From positions 1-19,419 of IMG/VR virus record IMGVR_UViG_2645727562_000003: 19,419 bases of DNA; one strand, given 5' to 3'. Of this stretch, positions 1 through 18,227 are shown piece by piece (within the stretch, counting starts at the first letter, position 1; each line of letters opens with the position of its first letter). Under the pieces are notes generated by a model, which worked only from the letters and a program-made list of their open reading frames with translations, was not told where the DNA came from and ran no database searches. The DNA comes from a virus. Taxonomy: Duplodnaviria > Heunggongvirae > Uroviricota > Caudoviricetes. Position numbers and translations under genes: made by a program.

Positions 1-969
1 CCCAACTTCTGAGGCGGCCTGAGATTCCATACGAATATGTGCAGAAATATGCTCTCCAATATCTATTGGTGCGAACAGGCCTGTTGTACGGTCAATAGTT
101 AAGGGGAAGATAGCTGCGCTATCTGAGGATATGGTGACTTCACCTTCACAGAAGAACGTGTCACCATTTATGGAATAAACTTTACAATCTGACCATTCCA
201 CTCGCTTCATGCGAATAGGGTTTCGGTTGAGGATGGCCTGCTTAGCCAGATAATCCACTTCTCCACCGGTTGCTTTAAAGTTCAGGTGCGTAAATTCAAA
301 CGTACCCTCCCCCTCGTACTGCAACGATTTAAACAGTGAGTACAGATCACTGTCGAATCTCAGGGTGACATTTTTATCAATGATTACTTTACTGTTCGCA
401 AGGAAAGAAGCGTTAGCAGCTGTAGACGGTACGGTGTACACCATCTGATTTTTTGAATGATTAGAGAAGTAAACATACCCGTAGGTCGCAACACTATCGC
501 GCCACGCCTGGACTACGTTAGAATTATCATAACTTGGAATTTTTGTGATCGACTGCAAAACAAGATCTTCCTGTGAGATAGCTCCGTTTACCAGATTAAC
601 ACCTCCTTGAGATGCAAGATCTTGCCTGAGTTGGTCAGGGTCATACTTCAGCACATTCGAAAAATAGAACTGCTGAGCACCGTACGCATCATAAACAGCC
701 ATAGAATGCCCTTGTACAGTAACGAACTTAGCAATCTGTCCGTTATATACAGGGTAGCCAGCAGCGTTAATGATGATTGGTTGCGAAACAGGAACGTGAG
801 AGCCATCTTCGTTCTCCACATAAACCTGAATCTGGTTTTCAGGATTTACCGGGTCAGTGTCAATTTTACCGATATAAATTTTACCATTGGCTACGGCTTT
901 AAAAGAACGAGCCATAGTGAAGAGTTGCGAAGGCATGCTTACCACAACATTTGCGGTGATATCTGTCAT
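1..969 (-). CDS. Tailspike protein, partial (N-terminal 323 codons; gene continues past the left edge of the window)
   Basis: Minus-strand ATG at 967-969 with GGAG 8 nt upstream. N-terminus [43 protein letters not shown] matches the P22 gp9 head-binding domain from memory. I checked every in-frame triplet from 1 to 969 and found no stop. After YDPDQ the sequence diverges from the P22/Sf6/HK620 tailspikes as I remember them. Not in the ORF track because it has no in-window stop. Confidence 0.85.
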
Positions 970-1027
970 TTAATTTGCTCCAGATACAAGGAATCGCCGC
1001 AGCATGGCTACGGTGAATTTTGGGCAT

Positions 1028-1051
1028 AAAAAAACCCAGCCGAAGCTGGGT
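1028..1051 (-). terminator. Rho-independent terminator downstream of the KilA-N antirepressor gene, upstream of the tailspike gene
   Basis: Plus strand aaaaaaa-cccagc-cgaa-gctggg; on the minus strand this is a GC-rich 6-7 bp stem with tetraloop followed by a 7-U tract. Confidence 0.6.
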
Positions 1052-1069
1052 CGTTGCGTTGGTTATCTG

Positions 1070-1960
1070 TCAGTAGTTATGTACTGAAGGAGGTAATTCT
1101 TTATTCTTAAGTCTCATCCATGCGGAAAGATTCGTTGGTCCGTCTGGCTCATTAATATCAACATCTCGTGTATGGTTGATTAAAACATCTCTCGCCATAT
1201 CGATAATACGGGAGAACTCATAACCGCAGTCATGACATCTGCCGGAATAGTTCGATTGAATTTGTTTTAGCGCCGGATACAGTTCGCGGAATAACGCCTG
1301 TGAGCGGTTGGCATAATCCCATAACCATACAAGGCTGTTTGCTTCTTTTGCAGAAAGCTCGTTGGTTTTCTTCTCTTGTTTGCCGATGAATTCACCTTCA
1401 AGCACTACCCTGTGGATGTACTCTACGGCCAGCGGGATTTGTTCAATTGAAAGTTCATCAATGCTGTCAATACCAAAACGCTGATGAACCATATTGTATG
1501 CATCGTCATAGCGAAGTCCTTTCTTTCCTACCAGCATGTTTACTGCATCTCGTAGCGGCGTGCGTTCAGCTACTGAAGTTTTACCGCCAATAGCCTTCCT
1601 CTCTTGTGTGGCAGTAACCATTGCGTCATATGCGCGGATAACCTTCAGCGCAAATGCTGCGCTAATCCACATGGCGTAGGAGTAAACAAGCTCCTTGCAC
1701 ACGTATGTTCCACCATATCTACCTTTCTTAGAAATGACGGGATTCTTATTCTGCATATCCGCAGAATTAAAAATTTCATTAATCAATTCAATAGTTTCAT
1801 TTCTACGCATGAAGAAAGCTGGCTGATGTTTTTCCTCCTTTCCAGACGCTACATGAAGGTCATTAAGCGAGTAACGACCCTCTGAATCCATATGAATCTT
1901 GACGTCAGAAATGATGATGCTATTAGTGCAATTTACAGTTGACTTTGCTAAGCTTGACAT
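1070..1960 (-). CDS. KilA-N domain antirepressor-like protein (occupies the position of P22 ant)
   Basis: Motif [13 protein letters not shown] and surrounding region fit the KilA-N domain. Start chosen at ATG 1958-1960 (MSSLAKSTV...) with GAGG about 10 nt upstream; the track start at 2026 is TTG with a poor SD. Same strand and operon as the arc-like gene. Confidence 0.6.
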
Positions 1961-2022
1961 ATCAATAATACCTCGTAAGTTTTGTTGATACCGAAGCCCT
2001 GACTGTTCCCGCAGTTGGGGCT

Positions 2023-2226
2023 TCAACTTTCTGCTCTATCAGTTATATCTTTCCCTTCGTATACTTCACCTATATTGCTAATGCTGGCAGAACATCCAAG
2101 ATGCTTGTATCTTATGATGTCCAACACGCAGTCACTACACAGCATCCGACCTGTTTCTTTAGAGTAAATGTATGTTTGATCAGCGTCTGATTCGCTAATG
2201 CCGCAGAAACAACATTCTTTACTCAT
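2023..2226 (-). CDS. Cys-rich small protein (67 aa), possible zinc-ribbon; unknown function
   Basis: ATG start overlaps the arc-like stop as ATGA (translational coupling). Cys pattern CCxC ... CxxC (C5, C6, C8, C30, C33). Confidence 0.45.
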
Positions 2227-2363
2227 ACCATCACCCCCTCTCTCTTCAAGCTGTCCAGCACCCGTTTAATTACTTCTGCGCTAAACGATCGACACTCTTC
2301 CTTTGCTTTCTCTTCAAGGATTTTTTCTAACTTCTCTGGCATACGCAGTGTTTTTACCTTCAT
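2223..2363 (-). CDS. arc: Arc-like ribbon-helix-helix repressor (46 aa)
   Basis: [46 protein letters not shown] resembles P22 Arc in length and in the SxEV/I..RV..S.K.EG region. ATG 2361-2363 preceded by GGAGG at 5-nt spacing. The track start at 2429 is GTG and less likely. Confidence 0.65.
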   Translation of the reverse strand: MKVKTLRMPEKLEKILEEKAKEECRSFSAEVIKRVLDSLKREGVMV

Positions 2364-2375
2364 TGCATCCTCCGC

Positions 2376-2412
2376 TGTATGTGGTACGCATACATAGTAT
2401 TTAGGTACGCAT
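2376..2412. promoter_or_regulatory. Candidate operator repeats in the divergent promoter region
   Basis: Direct repeat GGTACGCAT at 2383-2391 and 2404-2412, 21 bp centre to centre. Imperfect inverted repeat TGTATG (2376-2381) / CATACA (2389-2394). The repeats overlap the start site, -10 and spacer of the minus-strand promoter. Confidence 0.4.
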
Positions 2413-2422
2413 TGATAGTCAA
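2394..2422 (-). promoter_or_regulatory. Candidate sigma70 promoter for the arc-like / Cys-rich / KilA-N operon (Pant-like)
   Basis: Minus strand reads TTGACT (plus 2417-2422), 17-nt spacer, TACTAT (plus 2394-2399). Predicted transcription start about 24 nt upstream of the arc-like ATG, so the GGAGG SD is included. Confidence 0.5.
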
Positions 2423-2440
2423 TAGACACCTACATATCCT
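2412..2440 (+). promoter_or_regulatory. Candidate divergent sigma70 promoter for the Mnt-paralogue / mnt operon (Pmnt-like)
   Basis: TTGATA (2412-2417), 17-nt spacer, TATCCT (2435-2440). Its -35 abuts the -35 of the minus-strand promoter, sharing 1 bp. Confidence 0.4.
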
Positions 2441-2468
2441 GTGGTAAAAAATTATTCAGGGTGTGCCG

Positions 2469-2726
2469 ATGTCTGATCGTAAGTACAAAAACCCTCAAGT
2501 GAATCTGAGGCTTCCTGTAGAGATAAAGGAACGTCTTATTGAACTGGCTGAGGCTAATTCTCGTTCATTAAATGCTGAGATGGTCGCTGCACTTGAAGCA
2601 TGGACCGAAAAAAATAAACACATTCAAGCACTAGACCTTGCAACTATAGCATCACGATTGATAGATCTTGAACATGATGTTGAGAAGTTGAAATGCATGT
2701 ATGGCAACAATAAAGACGAAAGTTAG
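2469..2726 (+). CDS. Ribbon-helix-helix DNA-binding protein with C-terminal coiled-coil-like tail (Mnt paralogue, 85 aa)
   Basis: N-terminus NPQVNLRLPVEIKERLIELAEANSRSLNAEMVAALEAW parallels the RHH region of Mnt (NFRMPLEVREKLKLRAEANGRLMNSELLQIV). ATG at 2469; the track start at 2463 is GTG. Confidence 0.55.
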   Translation: MSDRKYKNPQVNLRLPVEIKERLIELAEANSRSLNAEMVAALEAWTEKNKHIQALDLATIASRLIDLEHDVEKLKCMYGNNKDES

Positions 2727-2749
2727 AGATACTAACTTGGAGTGATGGC

Positions 2750-3001
2750 ATGGCTAGAGATGATCCGCACTTTAACTTCCGTATGCCTTTGGAAGTAAGA
2801 GAAAAATTGAAATTAAGAGCCGAGGCTAACGGAAGGTTAATGAACTCTGAGTTATTACAAATCGTTCAGGATGCGCTATCAAAACCATCACCGATTGCAG
2901 GTTACCGTGACGAAGCAGAACGCATGGCTGATCAGCAAGCAGAAATTGTTAAGAAGATGGTGTTTGAAACGCTGAAGGATTTGTACAAAAAACCCACCTG
3001 A
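2750..3001 (+). CDS. mnt: Mnt repressor (83 aa)
   Basis: MARDDPHFNFRMPLEVREKLKLRAEANGRLMNSELLQIVQDALSKPSP... is near-identical to P22 Mnt as I remember it. GGAG SD about 8 nt upstream of ATG 2750. Confidence 0.85.
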   Translation: MARDDPHFNFRMPLEVREKLKLRAEANGRLMNSELLQIVQDALSKPSPIAGYRDEAERMADQQAEIVKKMVFETLKDLYKKPT

Positions 3002-3017
3002 AGGTGGGTTAATTTTT
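2991..3017 (+). terminator. Rho-independent terminator after mnt
   Basis: Stem aacccacc (2991-2998), loop tgaa, stem ggtgggtt (3003-3010), then aattttt. The mnt stop codon sits in the loop. Confidence 0.6.
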
Positions 3018-3066
3018 GCATTTACCTGGGCCATATTGACTACTTATAAAATGAGATCAATATTTA
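3016..3066 (+). promoter_or_regulatory. Candidate promoter for the YjzC-like moron gene
   Basis: TTGACT at 3036-3041 is a good -35. Possible -10 elements (AATATT 3059-3064, TATAAA 3045-3050) are imperfect or badly spaced, so the exact promoter is unresolved. Confidence 0.3.
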
Positions 3067-3100
3067 ATCGCCCAATAACGGGTGTATGTTGAGGTATATC

Positions 3101-3280
3101 ATGGCGAAAAAACCAGGTGAAAACACAGGAAAAAACGGCGGAATATACCAAGAAGTTGGCCCACGCGGCGGTAAGAAAGACAATTTTGCAACCGTCAAGG
3201 ACAACGAAAGGCTTCCACCAACAACAAAGCCAGGTCATGGCTGGGTATTGGATAAGCGAACTCCAGACAGCAAAAAGTAA
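3101..3280 (+). CDS. YjzC-like small protein (59 aa)
   Basis: MAKKPGENTGKNGGIYQEVGPRGGKKDNFATVKDNERLPPTTKPGHGWVLDKRTPDSKK; the pattern KPG..NGG.Y.EVG ... P.T ... W resembles the YjzC-like family from memory. ATG 3101 preceded by GAGG at 6-nt spacing; the track start at 3086 is TTG. Followed by its own terminator. Confidence 0.6.
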   Translation: MAKKPGENTGKNGGIYQEVGPRGGKKDNFATVKDNERLPPTTKPGHGWVLDKRTPDSKK

Positions 3281-3286
3281 TAATCA

Positions 3287-3308
3287 AGCCGGGTCACTCC
3301 GGCTTTTT
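3287..3308 (+). terminator. Rho-independent terminator after the YjzC-like gene
   Basis: agccgg(g)-tcac-ccggct followed by tttt at 3305-3308. The hairpin overlaps the stop codon of the convergent minus-strand gene. Confidence 0.55.
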
Positions 3309-3659
3309 GATATGTCGCTCGCAGAACTCAACAAGCCTGCTCATTAAGTAGCAGTAAGTCTCGTTGGCTCTTCCTGGTTCAACATCAACACCTACCCTTG
3401 AGCAGATATCGAATGCCATGTGAGCGCACTCATGGGCAATAGTAGATAGTTTGCCATTGAACACGCCTATCACATGCAAAACACCATTCTCGCTACTCAC
3501 TGTATGAGACGCTCCGTTGGCGTCCGAGTCATGCACGTCAACGCCAAGTTTTTGATGCAGGCGTTGCCATTCTGGAAAGTCTCTACAAAACACAATTATA
3601 CCGCTCTCAAAGAGCGGAACGAGCATCTTTGGTACGTTTCCAATGTTAACTTTTTTCAT
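3294..3659 (-). CDS. Small HExxH-motif protein (121 aa), putative minimal ImmA/IrrE-like zinc metallopeptidase
   Basis: Motif TIAHECAHM followed 13 residues later by E-PGR-ANETYCYLM, resembling the ImmA/IrrE HExxH ... ExxANxFxxxLL signature. ATG 3657-3659 with AGGA at 4-nt spacing; the track start at 3698 is TTG with no SD. Overlaps an antisense plus-strand reading frame (3474-3689), so the assignment is tentative. Confidence 0.45.
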   Translation of the reverse strand: MKKVNIGNVPKMLVPLFESGIIVFCRDFPEWQRLHQKLGVDVHDSDANGASHTVSSENGVLHVIGVFNGKLSTIAHECAHMAFDICSRVGVDVEPGRANETYCYLMSRLVEFCERHIKKPE

Positions 3660-3689
3660 GGTATCCTGAGCAAAACTAAGGAGGTTGGT

Positions 3690-4079
3690 GTGAAGCAATT
3701 TCTTACTGCTATGTTCTTATTCATATCTTTTGGGGCTACAGCAGAGTGCTGGGTCGTTGGAGATATGCGCGGAATAAGCTATTCAGAACGAAATAATTTC
3801 CATCCGGAAGAAGATGGTTTTAGTGGAACATTCATCATTAAGACAAACGGTGAAGATGCCAGCATCACATATTCTGGGACAGATGCGGGCGGCATGGCTT
3901 ACAAAGCATTGTCTAAAAACTCCATCATAGGAATCGGCGCGAATGGCGAAACTCAACGCGTTATCGACTCATGGGTAATACATCCTACTGGAACAGTTTT
4001 AATGTCAAAAACCATTTCCGGTTATGGAAATATGGATTCAACCAAAGCTTTTGTTGGAAAAGTAAAAAGAAAATGTTAG
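3690..4079 (+). CDS. Secreted/periplasmic protein (129 aa precursor, predicted signal peptidase I signal peptide), unknown function
   Basis: AAGGAGG (3678-3684) 5 nt upstream of GTG 3690. N-terminus MKQFLTAMFLFISFGATA followed by ECWVVG is a canonical signal peptide (basic n-region, hydrophobic core, A-x-A site). Mature protein is Gly/Ser/Thr-rich with Cys at both ends. The track's 201-aa version from ATG 3474 lacks an SD and runs antisense through the HExxH gene. Confidence 0.55.
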   Translation: MKQFLTAMFLFISFGATAECWVVGDMRGISYSERNNFHPEEDGFSGTFIIKTNGEDASITYSGTDAGGMAYKALSKNSIIGIGANGETQRVIDSWVIHPTGTVLMSKTISGYGNMDSTKAFVGKVKRKC

Positions 4080-4103
4080 CGATTGAATCCAATTTCCCAT
4101 ACG

Positions 4104-6014
4104 TTACTGCTGTGTTGCCTCAGTGGCAAGCAGCGGCCTGATGGCATTCGCAGCGTTATTCAGCGTTCTTTCATAGGCTGGCGTTCCTGCTTTGGTGTTT
4201 GCCAGACGTAAGAGAGCATTCCTTGCTGCTTTGGACTCATACAAGCGCATGATTGCACCGAAACCAGATTCAAGCGCCAGTGTTGCCCCAAGAGTCGCAG
4301 TTGCGCCAATCGTCCTTATCCTGTTGGCTTGCGATTGCCCTGTCTGAGTTACAACATTTGCGATGTCTGACCTTGCTGTTTGCTGTAGAACTTCATGAAG
4401 AGCATCAAGCTCTTTCATGTGTCTCCCACTGAATATCGTGTTATAGATCTGACCGTCAGATTGCGACTTCAACTTATTTAACTCGGTAAGAAATTTTGTT
4501 GGCGAGTCTCCTGCCTTTTCTGCAATCTTGCTAATATAAGCAGCACGCATAGCGTTCTTTCCATCTTCACTAAGAGCAGGCCATATCCTCTTAATATCTG
4601 ATGGTTTTCTGCTGAATACAACGCTGTTTATTAGCTCTGGAGTAAACTCTTTTTTAGCTTTGTTGAGATTGTTCGCAATCCTTTTATTGAGAACCTTATT
4701 GAATACGTTGGAGTAGTCAGAGTTTGCTTTGACGTATCTGGCAGCCTCTCCAGCCCCCAAATACCGTGCTGCGTTATTCCTCAAATCTGAACCCATTGCC
4801 CTCTCCACGGCATCAGTTGCGGCTTTCGCGCTATTAGGAAAAACCATGGCATCTCCCTGAATACTTTCCCTTAATGCTGACCGCAACTCTCTCAATAGTC
4901 CAAAATCTACATCTGGTTTAGCAAGTTCTTCTCGCAAATCGGATAGCCCGCGAATCAAATCCTTATTTGCCACTTTCCCAAGCCTGTTAGCCCTGGTAAG
5001 CACGTTGTCGATAACCTTAATGGATTTTGATGTGTCAACAGGTGTATCTCCCATTTTAGTTGTAATGTCTTCAATAACGCTTCCGGCTGAATCCTTCCTT
5101 GACTTCAGAGAACCATACAGATCGTCAACAACAACTGATGGGCTATATTCACCATATTTCTCAAGCTGTTTTTTAACTAGCTGACTTCTTTTTGCATACT
5201 GCTCAGCTCGCTTTGAGCCTGTTCCCAGCAAAGCCCCCTCAGCATCCTGAGTAAGACCACGAGTGAAAGCATTTTTCGGCGGGATTACATCAGATGTCAT
5301 TGGTGTCACGCCCATCGATTCTGATGTGGCAATTTTCTTCGCCACTTCTGGTGCAATATCACCTTTAAAGGCAGTTATTCCACGCTCAAGCCCTTTTGCA
5401 ACAGTATTAACAGCACCACCTGTTAGCATGCCAACACCTATATCTGTTGCCAGTTTTCCCGCATCATTTTTCTCACTGTTTGCGGCGAGCGATCCGACTG
5501 CGTTTTCTGCCAGAAGACGGGTTGCGCCTTGAGTAATTCGACCAGCAAGTGTTGGCGCCTGAGTTGAAGCGCCGCCAACGCCAACAGTAGCCAGGTAAGG
5601 CAATGCCTCCGCAAACACCCTACCTTCTGTCGTTTGTGGAGTCAGAGCACCTTGCTGAAGTCCAAACGCCTGCTCTAATCCCTGAGTTGTTACTCGTGGC
5701 GCTGGTTGATATGTTCCATCGCCAATACCGAGTTTACCGCCAGCCCATGCCGCCGCGCTTGTTACAGCATCGGCAACTGATGCTGGTATATTTGCCACAT
5801 TTACACCAGCCTGCACCAGTCCGCGACCAGTTTCTTTTACTGCTTCGCCGAGGTCAGACATAAATCCATCTTGCTGTTCTACAGGCTGCTTTTGGTTTTG
5901 AGTTGGTTGATTACTGGAGGACAGAATCTGAGCAATGCGACGCGCTCCTTCTGTATCGCCTGCCGCATCAGCGTTCCTTAATGCTGTCATCAACTGTTCA
6001 CGACTATAGGCCAT
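4104..6014 (-). CDS. Ejection (DNA-transfer) protein, P22 gp16 homologue
   Basis: 636 aa, Ala/Gly-rich, last of the three ejection genes in conserved order. GGAGGG SD; start overlaps the gp20 stop as TAATG. Confidence 0.8.
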   Translation of the reverse strand: MAYSREQLMTALRNADAAGDTEGARRIAQILSSSNQPTQNQKQPVEQQDGFMSDLGEAVKETGRGLVQAGVNVANIPASVADAVTSAAAWAGGKLGIGDGTYQPAPRVTTQGLEQAFGLQQGALTPQTTEGRVFAEALPYLATVGVGGASTQAPTLAGRITQGATRLLAENAVGSLAANSEKNDAGKLATDIGVGMLTGGAVNTVAKGLERGITAFKGDIAPEVAKKIATSESMGVTPMTSDVIPPKNAFTRGLTQDAEGALLGTGSKRAEQYAKRSQLVKKQLEKYGEYSPSVVVDDLYGSLKSRKDSAGSVIEDITTKMGDTPVDTSKSIKVIDNVLTRANRLGKVANKDLIRGLSDLREELAKPDVDFGLLRELRSALRESIQGDAMVFPNSAKAATDAVERAMGSDLRNNAARYLGAGEAARYVKANSDYSNVFNKVLNKRIANNLNKAKKEFTPELINSVVFSRKPSDIKRIWPALSEDGKNAMRAAYISKIAEKAGDSPTKFLTELNKLKSQSDGQIYNTIFSGRHMKELDALHEVLQQTARSDIANVVTQTGQSQANRIRTIGATATLGATLALESGFGAIMRLYESKAARNALLRLANTKAGTPAYERTLNNAANAIRPLLATEATQQ

Positions 6015-7399
6015 TACTGCCCTCCGAGATATTTGCTAATTAATTCGTCATCGGACAATTGCTGTTGAGGTTGGCTATCGCCATAACTTGAGGAAAGAAA
6101 GCGTTTTGCCGCAGAGTTCAATGATTCACCCTTCTTAACATCCATCCCCATGATGTTTCGGTTGCGATCAGATTGTCCTGGGCTGCCATTTGCACTCATC
6201 CACTCTGACCTAAACTCGTTGAACTTCGCGTTATTACTTTCCATTTTTGCCATACCCCTTAACCATCGAGCCATGACCATTGGATTATCCGTTTCGCTTG
6301 GAATGCCTTTCCTTGCAAACTCAATATCCTTATCTGATGCAGGGCCGGGAGGGAGAAGCTTGGTTGCCTGCGCATTGGCTAGTTGGTTGAATCTAATCCG
6401 CATATCTCGGAGGTAGTTATCTTGCCCCGTAAGCTTAGTGAACATATTTTCAGCGTTACCGAACAAACCAGGAGTTGGCTTCTCCTTCTCAAGCGTGTCA
6501 GCAAGCGTTGTCATTGAATCGGCAGCATTACGACTAGCTGCCGCATCACCTGCTGATTTTTCTATAGCCTTTTCCATGTTCACTGATAATTTTGGCGCAG
6601 CATTAATAAGTTCCTCGGCCTTCTTTTGTGCCTGTTGTACTTCAAAACCGAATTTCTGCTTATCAAGTGCCAGTCTTTCTGCTGCAAGTCCGTGTCCGGT
6701 CATTGCAGACTGATAGGAAAGGTTTTGCCCCCTAATAGCCCTCGCATTCGTCATGTCATTATTGCGAATGGTTTCGTTAATTCTTTGCTGCTCCTGCTGG
6801 CGACCAACCATCTTATCCTGAACAGCAAACGCCTTTTCTGGTCCAAGCGCACCGAGAGACATAGTAGTCAGCATGTGTGATAGCTGCTCTGGATTCTGGA
6901 TACCTGTCTGAATCATCCAGTCAGCATTAGCACCAACGCGATTTAACCTGTCCTTGTTGTCAGTAATGAATTTACTGTAGGCTTCCGGTCCCTGAGAAAG
7001 AGCGACGTTAGCCCTCATGGCTAAATCGCCCATATCGTTGCGTTGCTGCTCATTAAGACCTGAAAACGCCTGTTGTGCCTGTGCAACAAACGCTGGATTT
7101 TCCTGGGCAAACTTAAATAGTCCCGATGGATCACCAGAAGCCCATGCATCAGCGTGAACCTTATTGAACGCACTAATAGCTTTCTGTTGCTGTTCCTGAT
7201 TGTAAATATCAGCAACTCCAGCCAGACCACGTAACGCGGTCAGGCCAACGTTATTTGCACCTGAGCGAGCCAGTTCATTGTTTTCGCGGATCAGACCAAG
7301 CGTTGCGTTAATGTCGCTTGCCTTTGGCGCATTCTCATTTTGCGCACCGATGCCAGCAAGAAATCCACCAGAATTAATACCCTGTTGCCACGTAGCCAT
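6014..7399 (-). CDS. Ejection (DNA-transfer) protein, P22 gp20 homologue
   Basis: 461 aa; N-terminus [20 protein letters not shown]... matches P22 gp20 from memory; position between gp7 and gp16 homologues. Confidence 0.8.
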
Positions 7400-7409
7400 T
7401 GATTACCCC

Positions 7410-8102
7410 TTAAAACAACGAGCCAAGCAGACCAAGACCAGCACCGATACCAGCACCCCACGGAGTTGATAGCTCGAGAGCACTGGCTATGCCACCACCC
7501 AAAAGTGCACCGGATGCAGCACCACTAACCCCCTGCTGCAATGCTGACGGTCGGTTGGCGTTTGCCGCAGCCAGCGCCGCGCTTTGCTGTGAAATCTGAC
7601 TCATGTTGTTGGCATATGTTTGCCCGGCGTTTGCCTGTCCCTGAAGAGCGCCAAGACCGATATTTGCCAGGTTGTTGTAATTGTTCATTTGTCCAGATAG
7701 CCATTGCTGACCAAGCGTTGGTGCGATTGTTGCTAACTGATTACTGGTTGCGGTGGAACCCAATCCACCTGTTGCTTCCGCTGCAGCCAGACTCTGATAG
7801 CGAGCCTGACCAGCAAGATCTTTATACTGCTGAGAGTTGTAATACTGGTTAAGTGCCTGACCTTGCCCTTCCAGAGACGATAAGTTCTCAAGGCTGCCGA
7901 CATACTTCCCAGCCAGAGGAGTAAACGGCTTCAGGTTGTTCATGATGGTATTGAACTGCTGATTTTGCAGGTCTGCGGCATACTTCTGAGCTTCTGCGGC
8001 ATACTTTGCGCTTTTATCAGAACTGCCACCTTTCCCGCCTTTTTCATGGCAATAAGGTTCCTCGCCGCGCAGTTTTCTGCCCAGCTTAAATGCATATAAC
8101 AT
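7410..8102 (-). CDS. Ejection (DNA-transfer) protein, P22 gp7 homologue
   Basis: 230 aa; MLYAFKLGRKLRGEEP...KGGKGGSSDKSAKYAAEAQKYAADLQNQQFNTIMNNLKPF matches P22 gp7 from memory. GGGAG SD. Confidence 0.8.
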   Translation of the reverse strand: MLYAFKLGRKLRGEEPYCHEKGGKGGSSDKSAKYAAEAQKYAADLQNQQFNTIMNNLKPFTPLAGKYVGSLENLSSLEGQGQALNQYYNSQQYKDLAGQARYQSLAAAEATGGLGSTATSNQLATIAPTLGQQWLSGQMNNYNNLANIGLGALQGQANAGQTYANNMSQISQQSAALAAANANRPSALQQGVSGAASGALLGGGIASALELSTPWGAGIGAGLGLLGSLF

Positions 8103-8104
8103 GG

Positions 8105-8563
8105 CTATCTCCCGTGATTCAGGAAGTCGATTAGTTCTTCGCGTGTGGCGCTGTAAAATGTCACGTCATCCACGCCTTTGAAGTATTTCTTGATGGTTCC
8201 TACTCGCTTAAGGCCAATCATTGCGCAGTACATCTGCCCGTGGCGGAATTTGCGTGCAGCGAACGATGTGACGCAATGAACGGTGGTGTTAGTCAGAATG
8301 TATCGCCAGAACGCCAGACCGATTTCCTTGCTGAAGCCGCGAATCTCTGGCAGGTACATGGCGTGGCAATCAAAGGTTAGCGGCTGAATCTCCTGATAGT
8401 AAACAATGCCGCCGAACTGTCCGTGCACGTTCACCTCAAAGTAACGGCAATCAGGTTTGTAGTCGTATCCATCACCGTTGTTGCTCCCGGCAATAATGTC
8501 AGGGTGATTTCCGACTGCTTCGATCAGGTCGATGTTTCGCGTTGGTTTGAACTGAATCATCAC
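8105..8563 (-). CDS. Head/tail assembly protein, P22 gp14-like (assigned by synteny)
   Basis: 152-aa ORF between the tail needle and gp7 homologues; ATGA overlap with the needle gene stop. Homology was not recognised directly; the call rests on conserved gene order. Confidence 0.55.
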
Positions 8564-9408
8564 TGCTCCGCGATTATCTTGATGGTTGTGGCAGTAAACG
8601 CCGCACCATTTGACTGGATGGTTAACGTACTGCCATTTGTGGCAAGAAAGCCGTCTTTATCAACGCTAAAGAACGTAGCTAACAGGATGTTGTCGGTTGT
8701 TGTCGCCGAGTTGCGACTGCTTACCAGTGTGTCAGGAACAGAGCCGGAAAAAGTTAGCTGCATTGACCTGTTGGCGGTTCCGCTGGGCCACGTCCCGACA
8801 ATCGACAGCTTGAAGAACAGGGTTTTGTTCTCGTTGAACACAACCATCTTGTTGTTAACGGTGTCGAAGAATGGTGCCAACGTGCCGGATGACGGCGTGA
8901 GCGTTTTCAGCAGGCTAACAAGGTTGGTCGGCGCTGTCGGGATAGTTACAGATACGCCAGAGTAAACAACCTCTGATTTCTTGCGAGTAGTGGCATACTT
9001 AAGAGCATCGATGCGCGTCTCATGGTCTGAAAGCGTGTTTTGAATGGCGACAACTTCATCCGTCAGATAATCAATATCGTTTTCTGCTGTCGTTAATCGC
9101 GAATCAAGGCCGACTATCGCCGCTTCTGCGTTAGTGATCCTTGTTTCGTGGTCCTGTATCTTCGCTTCAGCCGATGCCAGTCGAATTTCGTGATCAACCA
9201 GAATCACATCCTGCTCATCGTTCCTGACCTGTGCATCAAAAGCGCCTTGTCCGGCCTCGTTGGCCTTGTTCGCCACATTACCAACATCAGCACCCTGTGC
9301 AATAACGTAAAGCAGATACGACTGCGAGAAGATATTGCGTGGAAGGATTGATGTATCGAGCCGCGTCGCCCGAACAATAACAGGTGTATTGAGATTCGAA
9401 TCCGCCAT
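8560..9408 (-). CDS. Tail needle protein (P22 gp26 family) with extended C-terminal knob, Sf6 gp9-like
   Basis: 282 aa; N-terminus [39 protein letters not shown] matches the gp26 N-terminal tip. The coiled-coil region is followed by about 130 extra residues, as in the Sf6-type needle, whereas P22 gp26 is 233 aa. Confidence 0.8.
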
Positions 9409-10826
9409 TACTCAATCCTTATCTGAGCACCAGACAGAGTGACAGGTGACTTCGTGATAACGCGCAATTTGAAGCCAATGTTTTTCCTGATGCGCCCTAC
9501 TCGCTTCCACAAAACACGTTTGTCGTAAACGAACGGTTCATTCTGCTCAATCATCTGCTCACGCCCGTAATTGATGCCGTCAGTGGTTGCAGAGAGAAAA
9601 AGGCGGTCAGCATACTGCGCAACGCCAGTTGACGACTCAACCTCAAGGTCGAACACTCTGGCGTTATCCGCTTTGAACAACGGAGTAAACAGCAGGTGTT
9701 CCTGTTGAAGACCATACTGACTGCTGATATCGAACTGCAATTTCCCGGTCACGGACTCCAGCTTATCGCCGCACGTTATCTGATTGCCTTCGTAAATGAA
9801 GTCGATAGCGCGGTACACATCGTCATACAAGCCAGTTTTCAACACACACCATTGCGGGCCATTGGCGCTTGAAGATGCGTCGTACACGAGGACATGACGC
9901 GGAAGGTGGATAATCAGCAACTCATGAGCATCAAATCGCAGAGACTCCATCACGCCATCAGCCAGTTCATCAGCAGTGTAGGAGCGGAGGATTTTCTCAA
10001 TGCTCGCGCTGGCGATTGGTGATACCTGACCGGAGCCGATGATGTATACAGACGGCGCACCTGTTGCCGGATTGCTGATGAACGCATACGAGTCAGCAAA
10101 CGGCGTTTTGCAGTAGGTCCCGGCAATGCCTTTCTGCACCATCAGCGATGGCTGGGCGACATACAAAGCAGCACCAACGGTGGTTGCACCAGTCAGGGAG
10201 AAATATTCAATCGTCGATGAACCAAAGCAGACGATGAAGTCTCGCCATGTCCCGATACCGATGATGCCGTCCGGCTGAGACTCGGCACGATATTGTGCGC
10301 TGTAACGGTCAGGATGCGATTCGTCTTCAAGATCAGTGATAAACCATGAATCAGTACCGTCTTTTGACCACGCATAACGCCCGCGTAAGCGCGTAATGTC
10401 ACGAACAGAACCTAACTCATACTGCGTGAATCCGCTGTCTGTAGGCCAGTTTGAGACGGTTTTAACCGTGCCATCATAGCGATACTCGACCAGTTGACCA
10501 TTAACGCCTACCGCCTGTGATGTCCGACCATGCGCCATTGATACACGACCACTTCCGGCGACATCACCAACCTCGCTTTCTCCTTTGTACAGTTTGCCAC
10601 CACACACGCGATAAACAGCACTCTGCGCCATGTTGTACTCGACGCCGCGCGATACACCGTTCACATCAGAACGTTTGGCAATGCCCGGGAATGAGCGAAG
10701 ATATCCGCTGCTGTTGAGGATTTCTTTGGGTGTAGCCAGCATATTAACTGGCAGATAGTCGATATAGTCGGCGTTTCGAAAGTCTTTGCCGACACCTTTC
10801 ATAAGCGGAAGTTGCTGAATCGGCAT
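9408..10826 (-). CDS. Tail hub / packaged-DNA stabilisation protein, P22 gp10 homologue
   Basis: 472 aa, the same length as P22 gp10; position between the gp4 and gp26 homologues; TAATG overlap with the needle gene. Confidence 0.75.
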
Positions 10827-10835
10827 TTATTCACC

Positions 10836-11297
10836 TCACGTACTCGGATCATCTTTCTCGATGTAAAACCGATTCCACGTAAACGCGCTTTTGTTACCAC
10901 TACCGCGAGGCATGTCATTTCGCCGCTCAAGTGGTGGTATTTTGGTTAAAGCGATGCAGATTGTCTGATATGCGCTGTCAGCAGCGGTAAGGAGAGCATC
11001 TGACGGCTGAATGACGTTATCCATGCACACTTGCACAGCGAGTTTCAAAGCGACGCCATCATTTGCCCATGCAGGGATACCTGAATCATCGTCAGGTAAC
11101 GGCATGATGCCGTTTTCTGTATCAGCAAACTGATATCCAAGCTCGATACCTTTCGCCTGCCATGCTGCCATCATGTCTTCGAGGTCATTAATGGCATCTT
11201 CTATTGCCTGAGGGTCGGCATCTGTCAACGTGGCATTGGAATACAGCCCGGCTTTTCGTAAAGCCTTAAGAACGAGATCACCCTTCGTTTTCGCCAT
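10836..11297 (-). CDS. Head-to-tail adaptor / tail accessory factor, P22 gp4 homologue
   Basis: 153 aa; N-terminus MAKTKGDLVLKALRKAGLYSNATLTDADPQAIEDAINDLEDMMAAW resembles P22 gp4. Confidence 0.75.
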   Translation of the reverse strand: MAKTKGDLVLKALRKAGLYSNATLTDADPQAIEDAINDLEDMMAAWQAKGIELGYQFADTENGIMPLPDDDSGIPAWANDGVALKLAVQVCMDNVIQPSDALLTAADSAYQTICIALTKIPPLERRNDMPRGSGNKSAFTWNRFYIEKDDPST

Positions 11298-11466
11298 CTT
11301 CTTCCGCCTTAGCCACTTTTTGCTTCATTGCGGTTTCTTCAGGAGTTTTTACCCAGCCTTTTTTCAGGTGAGATTTAACTTCTTCGTCATCAACAATGAC
11401 GTAATCGACAGCAAACTGACCACAGGTGATCATGTTGCCAGGCTTATAGAGCATTGTTCGTGCCAT
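11278..11466 (-). CDS. Small hypothetical protein (62 aa) between coat and gp4-like genes, in the position of Sf6 gp6
   Basis: ATG 11464-11466 preceded by GGGAGAAG, immediately downstream of the coat terminator. The track start (11505) is an upstream extension into the terminator. Confidence 0.45.
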   Translation of the reverse strand: MARTMLYKPGNMITCGQFAVDYVIVDDEEVKSHLKKGWVKTPEETAMKQKVAKAEEDGENEG

Positions 11467-11477
11467 TGTCTTCTCCC

Positions 11478-11500
11478 AATAAAAATGGGGCCGAAGCCCC
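11478..11500 (-). terminator. Intrinsic terminator (probably partial) immediately after the coat gene
   Basis: Minus-strand RNA GGGGC-UUCG-GCCCC (UUCG tetraloop) followed by AUUUUUAUU; lies 7 nt after the coat stop and before the next gene's SD. Confidence 0.6.
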
Positions 11501-11507
11501 ACCAAAA

Positions 11508-12761
11508 TTACTGCCCGGCAATAACGATGCCCGTATATTCAGGAACCAGTACAGAGCAACCGTACAGAGTGGTGAAACGCGCAGTGGTTACACCTTTGAT
11601 GTGGTCGAAGGCGTAAGACATGATCAGCGTAGCGCCCTGCTCGGTGGTTGCTGTCATTACCTGTGGACCCTGACCAGTCGGGAACGCCAGTTTGCCGTAC
11701 ATCAGCTCAACAGAACCATCAGCCCAGAACAGGTTAGCAGGTGCTGCGTTCTTGTTGAGAATGGTGATTGCTGCTGATGCTGCCGGCTTGGCATCGACGT
11801 TTGCATATGGACGACTCGCAACATCGGCATTTTCAACAGGGAGAATCTTTGGAGAGATTGTTACGGTAGTTCCGCTAACAGCCAGAACACGGAATACCTG
11901 CGGTTGCCCGGTGGTATCTTTTGTGATCTGGTGTACGGAATTCACACCGGCAATGGTGAACGCATCACCAACCTGCAAGCCAGATGCAGATACCGTAATA
12001 GTCCCCTGTCGGTTATCAACTGGCATACCATTTAAATCTTTCGCTTCAACCTTGTGTTCAGGTTGGCCTGATACTGTCAAGGATTCAGTGCTTCCTTTCG
12101 GTAATCGACCAAAAATATCGGTCTTGTAGCTATCAAAGGAAGCAACCGGAGGGATCTGCGCTTTTTCGTATGCTGTCAGGGTTGCGCCCTGAGCATAGGC
12201 ACGGTGACCAAGCTCGCCTGCAAGATCTTTGTAGTTGAAGGGGTTCCAGAAAGAGCGACGGTTGATGCCCTGAGGTACACCAATCGCCGTCATGGTGGCA
12301 TCAATGCCTGCCGCACAGTTCCACAAATCACGGCCCTGTGTACCTGTGGTTGAGTCAGCCATCGTGATCACGTTAGTAGCACGCTGCGTGACCATGGAAA
12401 TCAGGTCAGAGTCAATCTGTGCAGCAAGGCGCATACCTGCGGCGCGACCAGCTTCAGTTTTATGTTCCGGGTCACGCATTTCACGCGCATCCAGAGTGTA
12501 CAGAATGTTTTTCGGCTCCTTGAACACAGAAGGAACAAGGCGCTGAACCAGTGCTGTAGGCGTTTTTCCGCTGAGGTCGAGGCCTTCCTCAATGTTCATG
12601 TGGTAATGCTGCGGACGATACAGAACATCACCTGCTCGCTGCATTGCTGTATCACCGGGACGGAATTTTTTAGCGTTACGGGAAACTACGCAGGCGGCCT
12701 CAAAGCCTTCAACGTAGTTTTCGAACATGATTTCAAGGTCTTTTGCTAATTGGTTAGCCAT
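11508..12761 (-). CDS. Major capsid (coat) protein
   Basis: 417 aa; follows the scaffold gene in the conserved order; length fits P22/Sf6 coat proteins (about 420-430 aa). Confidence 0.85.
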   Translation of the reverse strand: MANQLAKDLEIMFENYVEGFEAACVVSRNAKKFRPGDTAMQRAGDVLYRPQHYHMNIEEGLDLSGKTPTALVQRLVPSVFKEPKNILYTLDAREMRDPEHKTEAGRAAGMRLAAQIDSDLISMVTQRATNVITMADSTTGTQGRDLWNCAAGIDATMTAIGVPQGINRRSFWNPFNYKDLAGELGHRAYAQGATLTAYEKAQIPPVASFDSYKTDIFGRLPKGSTESLTVSGQPEHKVEAKDLNGMPVDNRQGTITVSASGLQVGDAFTIAGVNSVHQITKDTTGQPQVFRVLAVSGTTVTISPKILPVENADVASRPYANVDAKPAASAAITILNKNAAPANLFWADGSVELMYGKLAFPTGQGPQVMTATTEQGATLIMSYAFDHIKGVTTARFTTLYGCSVLVPEYTGIVIAGQ

Positions 12762-12779
12762 GCTTAATGCTCCGATAGG

Positions 12780-13673
12780 TTATTTTTTTGCCTTTTTAGC
12801 GGCGAAATACGGCGTCCAGTCACCAGTTTCCAGCGCCTTGGCTTTCAGTTTGTCGAGGTTGTTGATTACTGCGCCGTTGCTCCCCTTAACTGTCGGGGTT
12901 GTGGCTGCCGTGGTTTTTGCTTTTGGCATGATTCTGGCCTTCGATTCGATACGTTCCAGCAGACGACCAATTGCTACGGGGTTGGTAGCTTCTGCCAGTT
13001 GCTTGCGCAGTTCAGCGTTGCGACCAAGCGCCAGAACAACGATTTCCGGCTTCTCTGACTCAAACAGGATCGCGTTTTGTGTCTCGATGGGGATTTCCTC
13101 GAGTACGGCCTGTTCTGCTTCCTGATAGCCAGGAACCTTGAGAGCCTTAACACGTTGCTGATATTTGGATAATCGCTCTTGATAAGCAGCCTGAAGCTCC
13201 TGCTCCTTCTGCTTGCGAGCCATCTCCTGTTGCTGGTACTTTCCGTTATCATCTGCCCACTTAGCCATGCGTTGCTGATAGATTTCTTCATCGAAACCGA
13301 TGTCCTCATCATCCAGTTTTGGCATTCGCGGTGGTTGAGTGATTACCGGCTGCTGCTCGACGGTTTTCTGAGACTGACGCATCAGCTCTTTCAGCTCGCG
13401 GTCTTTCTCTTTAATCGTCTTGCGCAGGTGTTTTACCAGTCCATGCTCTGCGCTATCTTCGCTGGTTGGCGAATCCAGCTTTTCGTCACCAAAGTAGAAT
13501 TCCTGTTCTGATTCGTCGTCATCAGTTTCAGTAGCTTCCTCTGCATCATTGCCAGAGGACTCACTGCCATCTTCTGTTTCGACTTCTTCAGCCAGTTCGA
13601 CATCATCAGGAATCTGCTCTGACGCGTCGGTTTCGATTTCAACTTCTGGTGTGTTTTCTGCCATCTGGTCCAT
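12780..13673 (-). CDS. Scaffolding protein
   Basis: 297 aa, strongly acidic N-terminal region, charged coiled-coil-like middle (QQEMARKQKEQELQAAYQERLSKYQQR), basic C-terminus. Position between portal and coat. Confidence 0.8.
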   Translation of the reverse strand: MDQMAENTPEVEIETDASEQIPDDVELAEEVETEDGSESSGNDAEEATETDDDESEQEFYFGDEKLDSPTSEDSAEHGLVKHLRKTIKEKDRELKELMRQSQKTVEQQPVITQPPRMPKLDDEDIGFDEEIYQQRMAKWADDNGKYQQQEMARKQKEQELQAAYQERLSKYQQRVKALKVPGYQEAEQAVLEEIPIETQNAILFESEKPEIVVLALGRNAELRKQLAEATNPVAIGRLLERIESKARIMPKAKTTAATTPTVKGSNGAVINNLDKLKAKALETGDWTPYFAAKKAKK

Positions 13674-13763
13674 TTGTTACCCCTGTTTACTCGATGTTCA
13701 GCCCATCGGAAGGCAATAGGGTGCCAGGCCTCATAAAGACAGCCATTGCACGTTATGGGTTAA

Positions 13764-15962
13764 TTACTGCTGTGGTTGTTGCTGAGTTGATTTTTGCAGG
13801 ATGCTGCTGATGTCCATGCGCTGCGCATGACCCTGTGCCTGACTTTTCAGGACAAGCTCTGCATCAGCACGGGCATTGTCTCCTTGCTGTTGCTGGAACT
13901 GTCCGAGCAGTTTCAGAGCCTCGCGGATATCAGATTTCTGCTGACTATCGGCAGATGCGAGTATTTTCACAACATTTGCCGCTGCAACCTGAGCATCAGT
14001 CTGTGCCTGGAATGCTTTAACCTGAATGGCTGCCTGTTCGTTCTGCGCTTTCTGCAATTCAGCCTGACCAGCAAGAAGCTGACCTTGCGCAGCAACCATA
14101 GCCGGATCTGGCTGACTGGCCTGTTGTTGTTTCGCCTGCTCAACCATCTTCTGTTCTTCTGGTGTTCTCGGCTTGATAACTCCAGACAGAAGCAACTGAT
14201 TGCGGTTGTATTCTTTAAGGTCGTCCATCCCTTCGCCGTCCATATTGTCGAGAATCATCGACGATACAAGGTCGTGCTTCGGCGTTCCTGGTGGGATAAG
14301 TGCCAGCATGGAAAGTAACGACTTAACCGTTGCATCACGGCGAGTAGCGAACGACTGACCGACATCGACAGTCACTTCATAGTTGCCCTGCGAAAGGTCA
14401 TTAAGCGCGATAACCTGCCCTGTCTGACGGTCAACCACTTCACCAGTCATCAGCGCCACGTCATCGCTGCCGTCCTCATTAACGATACGCATCGGCGTAT
14501 CACTGCCATAGACCTCACGCGCCATAGAAAGCCACACAACGCCAGCGCGACGCATGGATTTAGCCATGTTGTCCATGTAGATATAGGACTGCGTATCCAT
14601 CCGGTTAAAGATGCTATCAACGGTATCGGTGGCGACGTTGCTCGGCATGTTCTCAAGCTGCGACGCACCTGTAATTTGCTGAATAGCCGTTCCGGTGTAC
14701 TGCAATAGCCCGGCAAGAGCTGGAGGCATTTGTGTCGGAGGCGTATAACTGCTGACCTGAGCCTGCGCAGTAATATCTCCGTTTTTGTTTTTCAGACTGA
14801 CCATCGGCAGGAACGCCGGGCGCTTTTTGTTGCGCTCCGCCCAATGAGTGGCGAGAGGACCAGGAATCATGTCAACATCAACTACAGGAATGCCATCACC
14901 GCCAGCCTGAGTAGCGTTATCTGCAATCATGGAAACCATCAGGTTCTCAAGACGCTGTGCATCCATCGCTTTTGCTGCGTGGCCTTCGATTCGCTCCTGA
15001 TTATCAACAAATGAACGACGCCCATATACCGGGATGAGAGGAATATGTTCGCCCGGAATGCGCTTCGGTTCTTCCAGCCATTCAGCGCCAGACAGAAGAC
15101 CGCAATAAACGCGGCGTTTCTTCACCGTTCTCTCACCGATCAGTTCGAATGCACCATCGGTTAGCTCGTCGACAATATCTTTGATTTGCTCTTCATCATA
15201 GATTGCCGTTTCTCCGCTAACAGGGTTGCGCCACGCCGTGAGCTTCACCTTCTCTATGCGGACTTCATAGTAGCGACCAACATAGATAGCATCAGGAGTT
15301 GACCAGTCATATTGAGTGCCAGTGTCATCACGAGAAAGACTTGCCGCGATGGAATCAGGGTATTCAGCCTCGAACGCTTTAGGCGTCATGGAGAACATTT
15401 CCATAGCCCACATAGCATCAGAGCGGTCATATTGCTTGCTGTCCTGATCGAAGAAGACGCATGTCGCTGGGTCGTAAACAGGAAGAAGGCTGATGCGTCG
15501 CTGCTCGTTACTCGGATCCATTTCATCTTCGTAATCGGCACACATGCGGAAACAACCGAATCCGCCCGTTACAGCATCATCAAATGCGTTATCACACGCT
15601 TCGCCACCTGATGTTTCCTGATAGTCAGCGCGGAATTTGCCGTTCATTTTTTCGGCTAACGCTTCCGATGCCTTGTCATCCTTCGGCCTGAATTTAACGC
15701 TGATGCGATTCTGTCGATACTCGCCAATGATGCGATCACATTCACGGGCAATCTTATTTAGTTCAAAGCGCGGGTAATGCTCAAACCTGCCTTCATCAAA
15801 TGAGTAACCAGCGTTTGTGCTGCCTTCCCACTGTGCACCGGACACCCTGACGAAACGTTGAGCCTCAATAATCTGCTCACGCATATCCTGCGTTGCTGAC
15901 CAGGCATTATCAAAGTTGCACAGCACCTTGCGATGCCAGTCAGTCATCTTTTTTTCTGCCAT
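13764..15962 (-). CDS. Portal protein (P22 gp1 family)
   Basis: 732 aa. Internal region KRRRVY...GEHIPLIPVYG and the Gln-rich C-terminal tail (...QAQGHAQRMDISSILQKSTQQQPQQ) resemble the P22 portal and its C-terminal barrel. Immediately downstream of the large terminase gene. Confidence 0.85.
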   Translation of the reverse strand: MAEKKMTDWHRKVLCNFDNAWSATQDMREQIIEAQRFVRVSGAQWEGSTNAGYSFDEGRFEHYPRFELNKIARECDRIIGEYRQNRISVKFRPKDDKASEALAEKMNGKFRADYQETSGGEACDNAFDDAVTGGFGCFRMCADYEDEMDPSNEQRRISLLPVYDPATCVFFDQDSKQYDRSDAMWAMEMFSMTPKAFEAEYPDSIAASLSRDDTGTQYDWSTPDAIYVGRYYEVRIEKVKLTAWRNPVSGETAIYDEEQIKDIVDELTDGAFELIGERTVKKRRVYCGLLSGAEWLEEPKRIPGEHIPLIPVYGRRSFVDNQERIEGHAAKAMDAQRLENLMVSMIADNATQAGGDGIPVVDVDMIPGPLATHWAERNKKRPAFLPMVSLKNKNGDITAQAQVSSYTPPTQMPPALAGLLQYTGTAIQQITGASQLENMPSNVATDTVDSIFNRMDTQSYIYMDNMAKSMRRAGVVWLSMAREVYGSDTPMRIVNEDGSDDVALMTGEVVDRQTGQVIALNDLSQGNYEVTVDVGQSFATRRDATVKSLLSMLALIPPGTPKHDLVSSMILDNMDGEGMDDLKEYNRNQLLLSGVIKPRTPEEQKMVEQAKQQQASQPDPAMVAAQGQLLAGQAELQKAQNEQAAIQVKAFQAQTDAQVAAANVVKILASADSQQKSDIREALKLLGQFQQQQGDNARADAELVLKSQAQGHAQRMDISSILQKSTQQQPQQ

Positions 15963-15963
15963 A

Positions 15964-17801: not shown

Positions 17802-17880
17802 ATTGATTATTTCCCTTCTGCTTGCTTATCCCATTCATCGCGGAATTTGGATGGGTTGTCGAAACCTTGAGTTGCCATGT

Positions 17881-18123: not shown

Positions 18124-18227
18124 TGTTGGCTCCGTTTATCCGTTAAAAGGGATATCAGTTAAGTTATCCCGTGTAGGGTATAAGCCATTATCAAGCCCAC
18201 CCGTAGATAGGCTTTGTAATGACATCT

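Follow-up and report, generated by a model that had tools for sequence, protein, structure and literature searches.

What is a small, cysteine-rich open reading frame (ORF) doing inside a phage immunity operon that in phage P22 does without it? The question is raised by a 19,419-nucleotide (nt) stretch of Caudoviricetes DNA (IMG/VR record IMGVR_UViG_2645727562_000003, positions 1 to 19,419; hereafter the window), which holds the immI ("ant moron") region of an Escherichia coli P22-like prophage near CUS-3 (Lederbergvirus). In P22, arc is annotated as being followed directly by sar and ant (BK000583), so the ORF that separates the arc-like gene from ant in the window is an insertion relative to P22, as an earlier, sequence-only reading had recognized. 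That reading proposed a zinc-ribbon accessory factor for the antirepressor. We come to a different answer, and regard it as the probable one: the ORF is a genuine translated gene, it is one exchangeable cargo allele in the operon of the promoter Pant, and its product resembles the zinc-binding domain (ZBD) of ClpX.

The ORF runs from 2226 to 2023 on the minus strand and encodes 67 amino acids (aa), including a CCFC motif (C5, C6, and C8), a CSDC motif (C30 and C33), and a further cysteine, C45. Its start codon (2226-2224) overlaps the TGA of the arc-like gene (2225-2223) as ATGA (GGTATGAGT). Both the ORF and this overlap had been described by the sequence-only reading and were confirmed. At the other end, the stem of the terminator hairpin of the sar antisense RNA begins with the G and A of the stop codon, and the last 6 nt of the ORF are common to sar. 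In P22 the stop codon of arc itself lies 6 nt before the same hairpin (TAAAGTTGAAGCCCC there vs. GAAAGTTGAAGCCCC in the window).

The ORF itself is not new, as the protein family is already in databases as a hypothetical protein. It matches phrog_7150 (function unknown) over its full length (E 3.4e-50, residues 1-67 on profile positions 1-67), and it is labeled "hypothetical protein" on at least 1000 GenBank contigs. In the RefSeq E. coli records inspected it is unannotated. In the CUS-3 record (CP000711.1, 6505-6986; positions 2777-3258 of locus L001), a misc_feature named "bsq2; boundary sequence" contains the 46-aa arc-like gene together with the 67-aa ORF. CUS-3 was described in a 2008 comparison as apparently lacking arc (PMC2629481); the short arc and the ORF are in fact both within bsq2.

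This label suggests a first alternative, namely that there is no functional gene here, and that the 204 nt are conserved as a recombination "boundary sequence" in which the open frame is incidental. The bsq2 annotation and the missing ORF in the RefSeq records would fit such a view. However, comparison with divergent relatives speaks for a protein. In P22-like prophages of E. coli and Salmonella, three subtypes (25-37% identical) fill the same position, with arc on one side and the sar hairpin on the other: the E. coli type of the window, a 68-aa Salmonella subtype (P0014 and P0019; 25-30% identical) recovered by exhaustive phmmer and profile searches, and a 63-aa subtype at locus L119 that came from a later census (37% identity over 41 residues, pairwise E 4e-11). 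All three begin with ATGA or GTGA over the arc stop and end with a TGA within TGAAGCCCC, and the Salmonella subtype matches the N-terminal 42 positions of the phrog_7150 profile at 5e-8. When the E. coli and Salmonella subtypes are compared over codons 10-67, nucleotide identity is 0.37 at first, 0.53 at second, and 0.25 at third codon positions, and the BLOSUM62 score is 46-48 in the ORF frame and at most 18 in the other five. The ORF frame is the sole frame free of stops in sequences of both subtypes, and when the ORF body of the window was shuffled by mononucleotides, 116 of 20,000 shuffles (0.6%) remained open. Across 19 sequences of the three subtypes, C6, C8, C30, C33, F7, G9, S22, K23, T25, and I37 are invariant. 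Divergent subtypes thus retain the frame, the start and stop geometry, the Cys4 motif, and a codon-position pattern of the protein type, and recognizable homology reaches a protein domain family (see below). In addition, the parts that behave as true linkers are the short flanks, whereas the ORF body is wholly replaced in other cargo types.

Variation within each subtype is less favorable to a coding gene and should be weighed against it. The E. coli ORF is nearly invariant (8 variable sites in 201 nt, mean pairwise difference 0.0096), compared with 0.146 in the 3' end of arc and 0.37 in the ant leader beside it, and the variable sites (3 synonymous and 5 nonsynonymous) carry no purifying signal. 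Nor do the Salmonella alleles, for which the nonsynonymous (dN) and synonymous (dS) distances are 0.091 and 0.076, compared with 0.12 and 0.69 for arc, although such within-type ratios come from very few substitutions in a mosaic pattern and are uninformative alone. Amino acid variants within a type cluster in the C-terminal tail (8 in 27 residues vs. 4 in 40). The substitution test that the sequence-only reading had in mind is therefore protein-like between subtypes and without a purifying signal within them. The low diversity of each cargo allele may plausibly arise because it is a young, horizontally circulating unit.

The second difficulty is a frameshift. Of 373 E. coli genomes that carry the ORF, ~300, almost all of them O157:H7, have an extra T in a T-run that truncates it at codon 10; this copy lies in the lambda-like prophage Sp6. 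Because arc is damaged too in related IMG/VR haplotypes, we consider the frameshift to be a single clonal event affecting a module that is decaying within a defective prophage. Conservation in relatives is accordingly mixed: frame, boundaries, and the four cysteines persist in homologs of ~35% identity, but the frame is broken in the O157:H7 Sp6 lineage. Overall, we are highly confident that the ORF is a real protein-coding gene, and the alternative that there is no gene is very improbable.

The wider searches returned few relatives. Phmmer against 1.84 billion representatives yielded one true homolog (P0014), the other matches being spurious eukaryotic immunoglobulin (Ig)-repeat proteins; exact 8-mer peptide patterns found no relative in genome contigs; and tblastn against deposited phages matched CUS-3 alone. 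Three allelic oddities were encountered along the way. In E. coli O157:H7 Sakai (L090, 1491-3146), the mnt-(arc)-ORF-ant module of Sp6 sits amid tail genes, with no arc annotated. In a Logan assembly (P0001), the GGGGG run ahead of the ATGA overlap is one G short, which gives a 112-aa Arc-ORF fusion; this is probably a rare mutant or a sequencing error. Finally, the P0014 allele is identical to the E. coli subtype over its first 26 nt (L050 3001-3027 vs. window 2226-2200) and of the Salmonella type thereafter, which suggests a recombination junction within the cargo gene.

To describe where the gene sits, it is useful to list the parts of the operon in the window:

2394..2422, minus strand: Pant-like sigma-70 promoter (TTGACT, 17-nt spacer, TACTAT), from a consensus scan; its position agrees with the P22 Pant/Pmnt annotation, and its function is presumed.
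2412-2440, plus strand: Pmnt-like promoter, divergent from and overlapping the Pant-like one (consensus scan).
2223..2363, minus strand: arc-like gene, 46 aa, ribbon-helix-helix (Pfam Arc, E 3e-8).
2223..2256, minus strand: left linker, comprising the final arc codons (..DSLKREGxxV*), a Shine-Dalgarno-like run (GAGAGGGG), and the overlapping ATGA (alignments and locus sequences).
2023..2226, minus strand: 67-aa cargo gene (phrog_7150, coding signature, synteny, hhalign, PDB profile match, and AlphaFold2 [AF2] models).
1993..2024, no strand assigned: sar terminator hairpin, the right linker (GAAGCCC..GGGGCTTC), read from the sequence, with an identical element in P22.
1962..2028, plus strand: sar antisense RNA (Rfam RF00262, 69.7 bits against a gathering score of 43, E 3.6e-14, full length 1-68/68).
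1070..1963, minus strand: ant antirepressor gene, 297 aa (Pfam KilA-N 1.1e-19 and P22AR_C 2.6e-28; phrog_2812 and phrog_245).
2469-2726 and 2750-3001, plus strand: tandem Mnt/Arc-family repressor genes, divergent from Pant (Pfam Arc 3.3e-10 for the first; Arc 9.3e-26 and Repressor_Mnt 8.2e-17 for the second).

The features of a P22-type immI region are thus present, namely an Arc-family gene first after Pant, sar over the ribosome-binding site of ant, ant itself, and a divergent mnt. The exception is that arc does not abut the sar terminator, as the 204-nt ORF lies between them. The Pant-like promoter would, from its position, drive arc, the cargo ORF, and ant. The RefSeq label of a gene identical to the arc-like one is "Arc family DNA-binding protein." Of the two tandem ribbon-helix-helix genes, the second alone has the Mnt C-terminal tetramerization motif. 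Further along, downstream of an orf59a-like gene, two ORFs overlap on opposite strands (3294-3698, minus, 134 aa; 3474-4079, plus, 201 aa), neither with a Pfam match.

Is the position of the ORF fixed or is it a site through which different genes pass? We searched IMG/VR for the sar terminator hairpin and obtained 80 loci, 79 of them informative. In 48 of the 79, an Arc/ribbon-helix-helix gene ends at the hairpin (the empty, P22 layout). In the remaining 31, arc and the hairpin are separated by a small ORF from one of eight families, and the Salmonella subtype makes a ninth. The eight are as follows:

E. coli-type Cys4 ORF, 67 aa: 8 loci intact, 3 frameshifted.
L119 subtype, 63 aa: 1 locus.
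60-aa protein typified by locus L141: 2 loci; a bona fide zf-C4_ClpX protein.
74-aa Cys4 protein: 2 loci; zf-C4_ClpX at 18.9 bits.
57-aa phrog_17642 protein: 4 loci, plus 2 deleted; also in O104:H4.
73-aa protein: 4 loci.
89-aa protein, transmembrane-looking: 4 loci.
80-aa protein: 1 locus.

The flanks of these genes are uniform. The left linker is kept at the nucleotide level 5' of every cargo type; before cargo, the 3' end of arc reads ..GACAGCCTGAAGAGAGAGGGGnTnnnGGTrTGA, which encodes DSLKREGxxV* and includes the Shine-Dalgarno-like run, whereas the Arc proteins of cargo-free P22-type loci end otherwise (..KKEGRIGA). Every cargo ORF examined starts with the A/GTG of the arc overlap and ends with ..AAAnnGTGAAGCCCC, its last codons being K, E, Q, S, or R. 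The linker geometry is identical in the seven loci inspected in detail, and the junction AAA..G/TTGAAGCCCC is conserved in the 80 loci. Genes that abut the hairpin (window 2023-2034 and its equivalents in the 80 loci) have A-rich final codons followed by the stop (AAAnnG TGA). These A-rich codons are complementary to the U-tail of the sar terminator, and it is because this U-tail lies on the opposite strand that both the cargo C-termini and the P22 spacer after the arc stop are constrained. Other occupants with identical coupling were seen at loci L098, L120, L133, L134, L141, and L152, and the 57-aa phrog_17642 ORF occupies the slot of E. coli O104:H4 HUSEC2011 (L095, 1715-1888), where it is unannotated in RefSeq.

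We conclude with considerable confidence that the arc-sar interval is a site for exchangeable cargo cassettes. A cassette bounded by two short conserved linkers explains the sharp mosaic boundaries, the "boundary sequence" label in CUS-3, and the fact that the ORF type is independent of both arc type and ant type. Homologous recombination in the two linkers would swap the cargo while leaving Arc autoregulation and the control of ant by sar undisturbed.

The census also bears on the idea, proposed in the sequence-only reading, of a dedicated accessory subunit or regulator of Ant that modulates its action on the prophage repressor. The ORF is immediately upstream of ant on the same transcript, this position is kept in E. 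coli and Salmonella, and all associated Ant proteins inspected have the P22AR_C domain. Nevertheless, one and the same ORF type accompanies at least four unrelated ant leaders and N-terminal domains (KilA-N, P22_AR_N, and the CUS-3 type), and vice versa; for the Salmonella subtype the number is two. These Ant types are also seen where cargo is lacking, as in the arc-sar-ant arrangement of P22, or next to unrelated cargo, and at least eight further small genes occupy the slot. Moreover, the ORF is coupled to arc rather than to ant, which has its own GAGG Shine-Dalgarno sequence and is separated from the cargo stop by a 60-nt spacer with a GC-rich hairpin. Given the varied ant types, the empty slot in P22, and the alternative occupants, the gene is better described as exchangeable cargo than as a fixed partner of Ant, and a role as Ant cofactor is improbable.

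The overlap with sar raises another possibility, that of a role at the level of RNA, either as a zinc-finger regulator of translation, resembling Com of phage Mu, with the structured sar-target region as its binding site, or because the act of translation, with ribosomes terminating in the hairpin, tunes the pairing of sar and ant. Mu Com, a small Cys4 protein, activates a gene that lies just downstream of its own. The sequence-only reading had called this interval regulatory in view of where sar acts in P22. The ORF is indeed in a sar-regulated immI operon, but sar is not displaced by it: the RNA is intact at 1962-2028 on the plus strand, complementary to the ribosome-binding site of ant. That the ORF stop lies within a hairpin complementary to the sar terminator, with the P22 arc stop at nearly the same position, would suit an effect of translation; however, any cargo ORF, or arc, gives the same termination geometry, and translation by itself leaves unexplained the conservation of four cysteines, F7, G9, and SKxT across subtypes of ~35% identity. 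A search for Com-family similarity in Pfam (E up to 10, three family members) found none. RNA structure in the ORF is not significant (z of -1.4 in the sense direction, sar hairpin included, and +0.25 in the antisense direction), and Rfam finds sar alone; on the same grounds we rejected an RNA element in place of a gene. An RNA-level role is, in our view, quite improbable.

If the ORF is a cargo gene, what kind of protein does it encode? The four conserved cysteines form a pattern typical of a single-zinc finger, and to this extent the zinc-ribbon proposal appears sound, but a ClpX-type ZBD (a treble clef) seems a better description than a generic zinc ribbon. Specifically, residues 1-40 are likely to be a diverged, stand-alone Cys4 finger resembling the ClpX-type ZBD in fold or by homology. 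Residues 41-67 form a variable acidic tail with predicted disorder.

Phmmer of the single sequence against the PDB gave weak RNF4 RING matches only. Several other comparisons point toward ClpX. When the family was aligned by hhalign with ClpX ZBDs, whose sequences were drawn from PDB alignments, the probability was 76%, rising to 85% when stand-alone phage ZBDs were added; the alignment, which has a single 3-residue gap, places C5, C8, C30, and C33 opposite the four ClpX ligands. The scores (30.4-31.1) were compared with 200 permutations in which the cysteine columns were fixed and all other columns permuted (13.1 +/- 3.0, maximum 25.2). None of the 200 attained the real score, and the similarity thus exceeds that of the cysteine pattern. 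A hidden Markov model of the three subtypes had a single match among 177,635 PDB sequences, the N-terminus of Neisseria ClpX (residues 5-45, E 0.012). For every family member tried, zf-C4_ClpX or ClpX was the only or top match, although a weak one (Pfam E 0.09-0.75; in NCBIfam a single match at E 0.17, which is of no useful strength). The UniRef name of the Salmonella homolog is "ClpX-type ZB domain-containing protein," and the 60-aa L141 occupant of the same slot passes the Pfam zf-C4_ClpX model (43 bits, E 4e-11). In the AF2 models, the order of secondary structure is hairpin, hairpin, helix.

Compared with the ClpX ZBD itself (PF06689 zf-C4_ClpX; structures 1OVX and 2DS5-8), the window protein has the same Cys4 CxxC..CxxC arrangement, with F inside and G behind the first pair, a hydrophobic residue ahead of the third cysteine, V/I following the fourth, and the same predicted succession of hairpins and helix. 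Its pattern, C5(C6)xxC8-x21-C30xxC33, corresponds to the CxxC-(~18)-CxxC arrangement of the ClpX type. Unlike ClpX, the window protein stands alone, with no AAA+ module, and has a unique acidic tail.

Other phages also encode stand-alone ZBDs: D6 orf93, P88 AIZ95127, Pseudomonas PP9W2 ULG00183, and an unannotated ORF of Pantoea phage PdC23. The last (L093, ~1480-1640) is ~52 aa long, has a clear ClpX-ZBD motif (MFCDFCGK...ICNECVEICNKII), and lies between a LexA-like gene neighborhood and rusA. Like the window protein, these are small, consist of a ZBD that may carry a short extension, and are found in early or accessory regions, and the L141 protein shares with the window ORF the identical arc-sar slot and coupling. 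These proteins and the L141 protein share 45-77% identity with the ClpX ZBD and can be recognized by BLAST or Pfam, whereas the window protein is far more diverged. In the literature searched, no function is described for the stand-alone phage ZBD proteins.

A number of observations weigh against the ClpX assignment. The full-length window protein has no Pfam match at E up to 1, and residues 1-42 score 11.9 bits with zf-C4_ClpX, below the 27-bit gathering threshold (10-13 bits for the Salmonella subtype and 12 bits for the L119 subtype). The hairpin between the two knuckles is 3 residues longer than in ClpX (21 vs. 18), and a fifth cysteine that is conserved in ClpX ZBDs is absent. Cysteine conservation in the family has its own limits: C45 is not conserved, and C5, the hhalign counterpart of the first ClpX ligand, gives way to Tyr in two rare alleles. 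Lastly, the slot also holds cysteine-free proteins, and with unrelated cargo types sharing it, location does not dictate a ClpX-related function.

In a different view, the product is a zinc finger with a target unrelated to ClpX, acting as an early counter-defense, superinfection, or host-takeover factor from a Pant-arc arrangement like an acr-aca operon. At least nine unrelated or distant small ORFs between conserved linkers are typical of conflict-driven accessory loci, the within-type dN/dS of ~1 and the varying C-terminal tails are in keeping with this, and the autorepressor logic of arc is established for P22 (annotation). The structural neighbors of the model are generic treble-clef protein-binding fingers. 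Set against this, ClpX-ZBD-like proteins make up five of the nine slot families, and one of these is a bona fide Pfam member, an enrichment that is hard to explain if the resemblance is irrelevant, and PADLOC, which does not cover anti-defense genes, returned no match. We consider an unrelated target possible, though not probable.

Returning to the ClpX-like cargo gene, a course of events can be sketched. In a lysogen, by analogy with P22, Mnt would repress Pant and the cargo gene would be off. Upon infection or derepression, Pant would fire briefly until Arc shuts it off, and the cargo protein would be produced in this early pulse, coupled and proportional to Arc. Judging from its domain, it may then act through protein-protein contacts as a mimic of the ClpX N-domain, competing for or pairing with the partners of the ClpX ZBD, either adaptors or ZBD-dependent substrates such as lambda-O-type proteins. 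The outcome would be that a phage or host protein is transiently shielded from ClpXP. Without the ClpX ZBD, lambda-O escapes degradation, and this domain is where SspB and RssB dock, with a hydrophobic patch around F16 as the binding site (PMC7804408); F7, the equivalent of F16 in this docking patch, is among the invariant residues of the family. We offer this decoy mechanism as a tentative proposal, possible on the basis of the domain resemblance rather than probable. A broader version, in which the slot preferentially carries ClpX N-domain mimics that reprogram the substrate or adaptor choice of ClpXP in the first minutes of infection, seems unlikely. If true, however, such mimics would represent a class of phage anti-proteolysis (host-takeover) factor not described before, and their delivery would be by a burst-and-shut-off operon resembling acr-aca.

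We also considered a link to a ClpP-like gene found beside mnt at Salmonella loci. In Salmonella prophages (L045-L048 and L050, ~1967-2503, minus strand), a 178-aa ClpP-like protein (PF00574, 1e-11; NCBIfam ClpP-related head-maturation protease, 2.5e-13) is encoded directly after mnt on the same strand, and is possibly expressed in the lysogen. The link was rejected: the gene is present in six E. coli phages without the ORF, and the ORF also occurs without the gene. It appears to be an independent moron.

The literature searched contains nothing relevant on the ORF, the slot, or stand-alone phage ZBD proteins, and describes no phage-encoded modulator of ClpXP substrate choice of this kind. Within that literature, the architecture of the arc-sar cassette, the enrichment of the slot for ClpX-ZBD-like proteins, and the assignment of the ORF to this class appear to be undescribed. 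The immI region of P22 is a textbook circuit, yet the extra cistron is absent from the RefSeq E. coli annotations inspected and from the CUS-3 reference record. A translationally coupled, swappable slot in the Pant operon changes how this region should be annotated and provides a defined place in which to seek early-expressed phage effectors. The ClpX-N-domain-like slot families, together with the stand-alone ZBD genes of other temperate phages, offer a testable link between early expression and ClpXP substrate choice.

How does this operon compare with better known ones? In acr-aca operons, a small repressor encoded by the operon itself silences a strong early promoter, and hypervariable cargo lies between conserved flanks. 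The likeness to Pant-arc-cargo is one of analogy only, as the window operon has a ribbon-helix-helix Arc, plus ant and sar. The immI operon of phage P1 comprises the c4 antisense RNA, icd, and ant; the icd product acts on the host, not on Ant, and the icd gene, which c4 targets directly, overlaps ant and is coupled to it in translation. Here too a small ORF precedes an antirepressor gene in an operon controlled by an antisense RNA, a functional analogy only, but unlike icd, the window ORF is coupled to arc, and the antisense target is found downstream of it. The closest counterpart is the immI region of P22 (Pmnt-mnt / Pant-arc-sar-ant), with which the window shares divergent promoters, an Arc-family autorepressor, one or more Mnt-family repressors, sar with a near-identical terminator hairpin, and an ant with P22AR_C. 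It differs from P22 in its two mnt-like genes (P22 has one), its short 46-aa Arc ending in SLKREGxxV, the KilA-N N-domain of its Ant, and the extra cistron between arc and sar.

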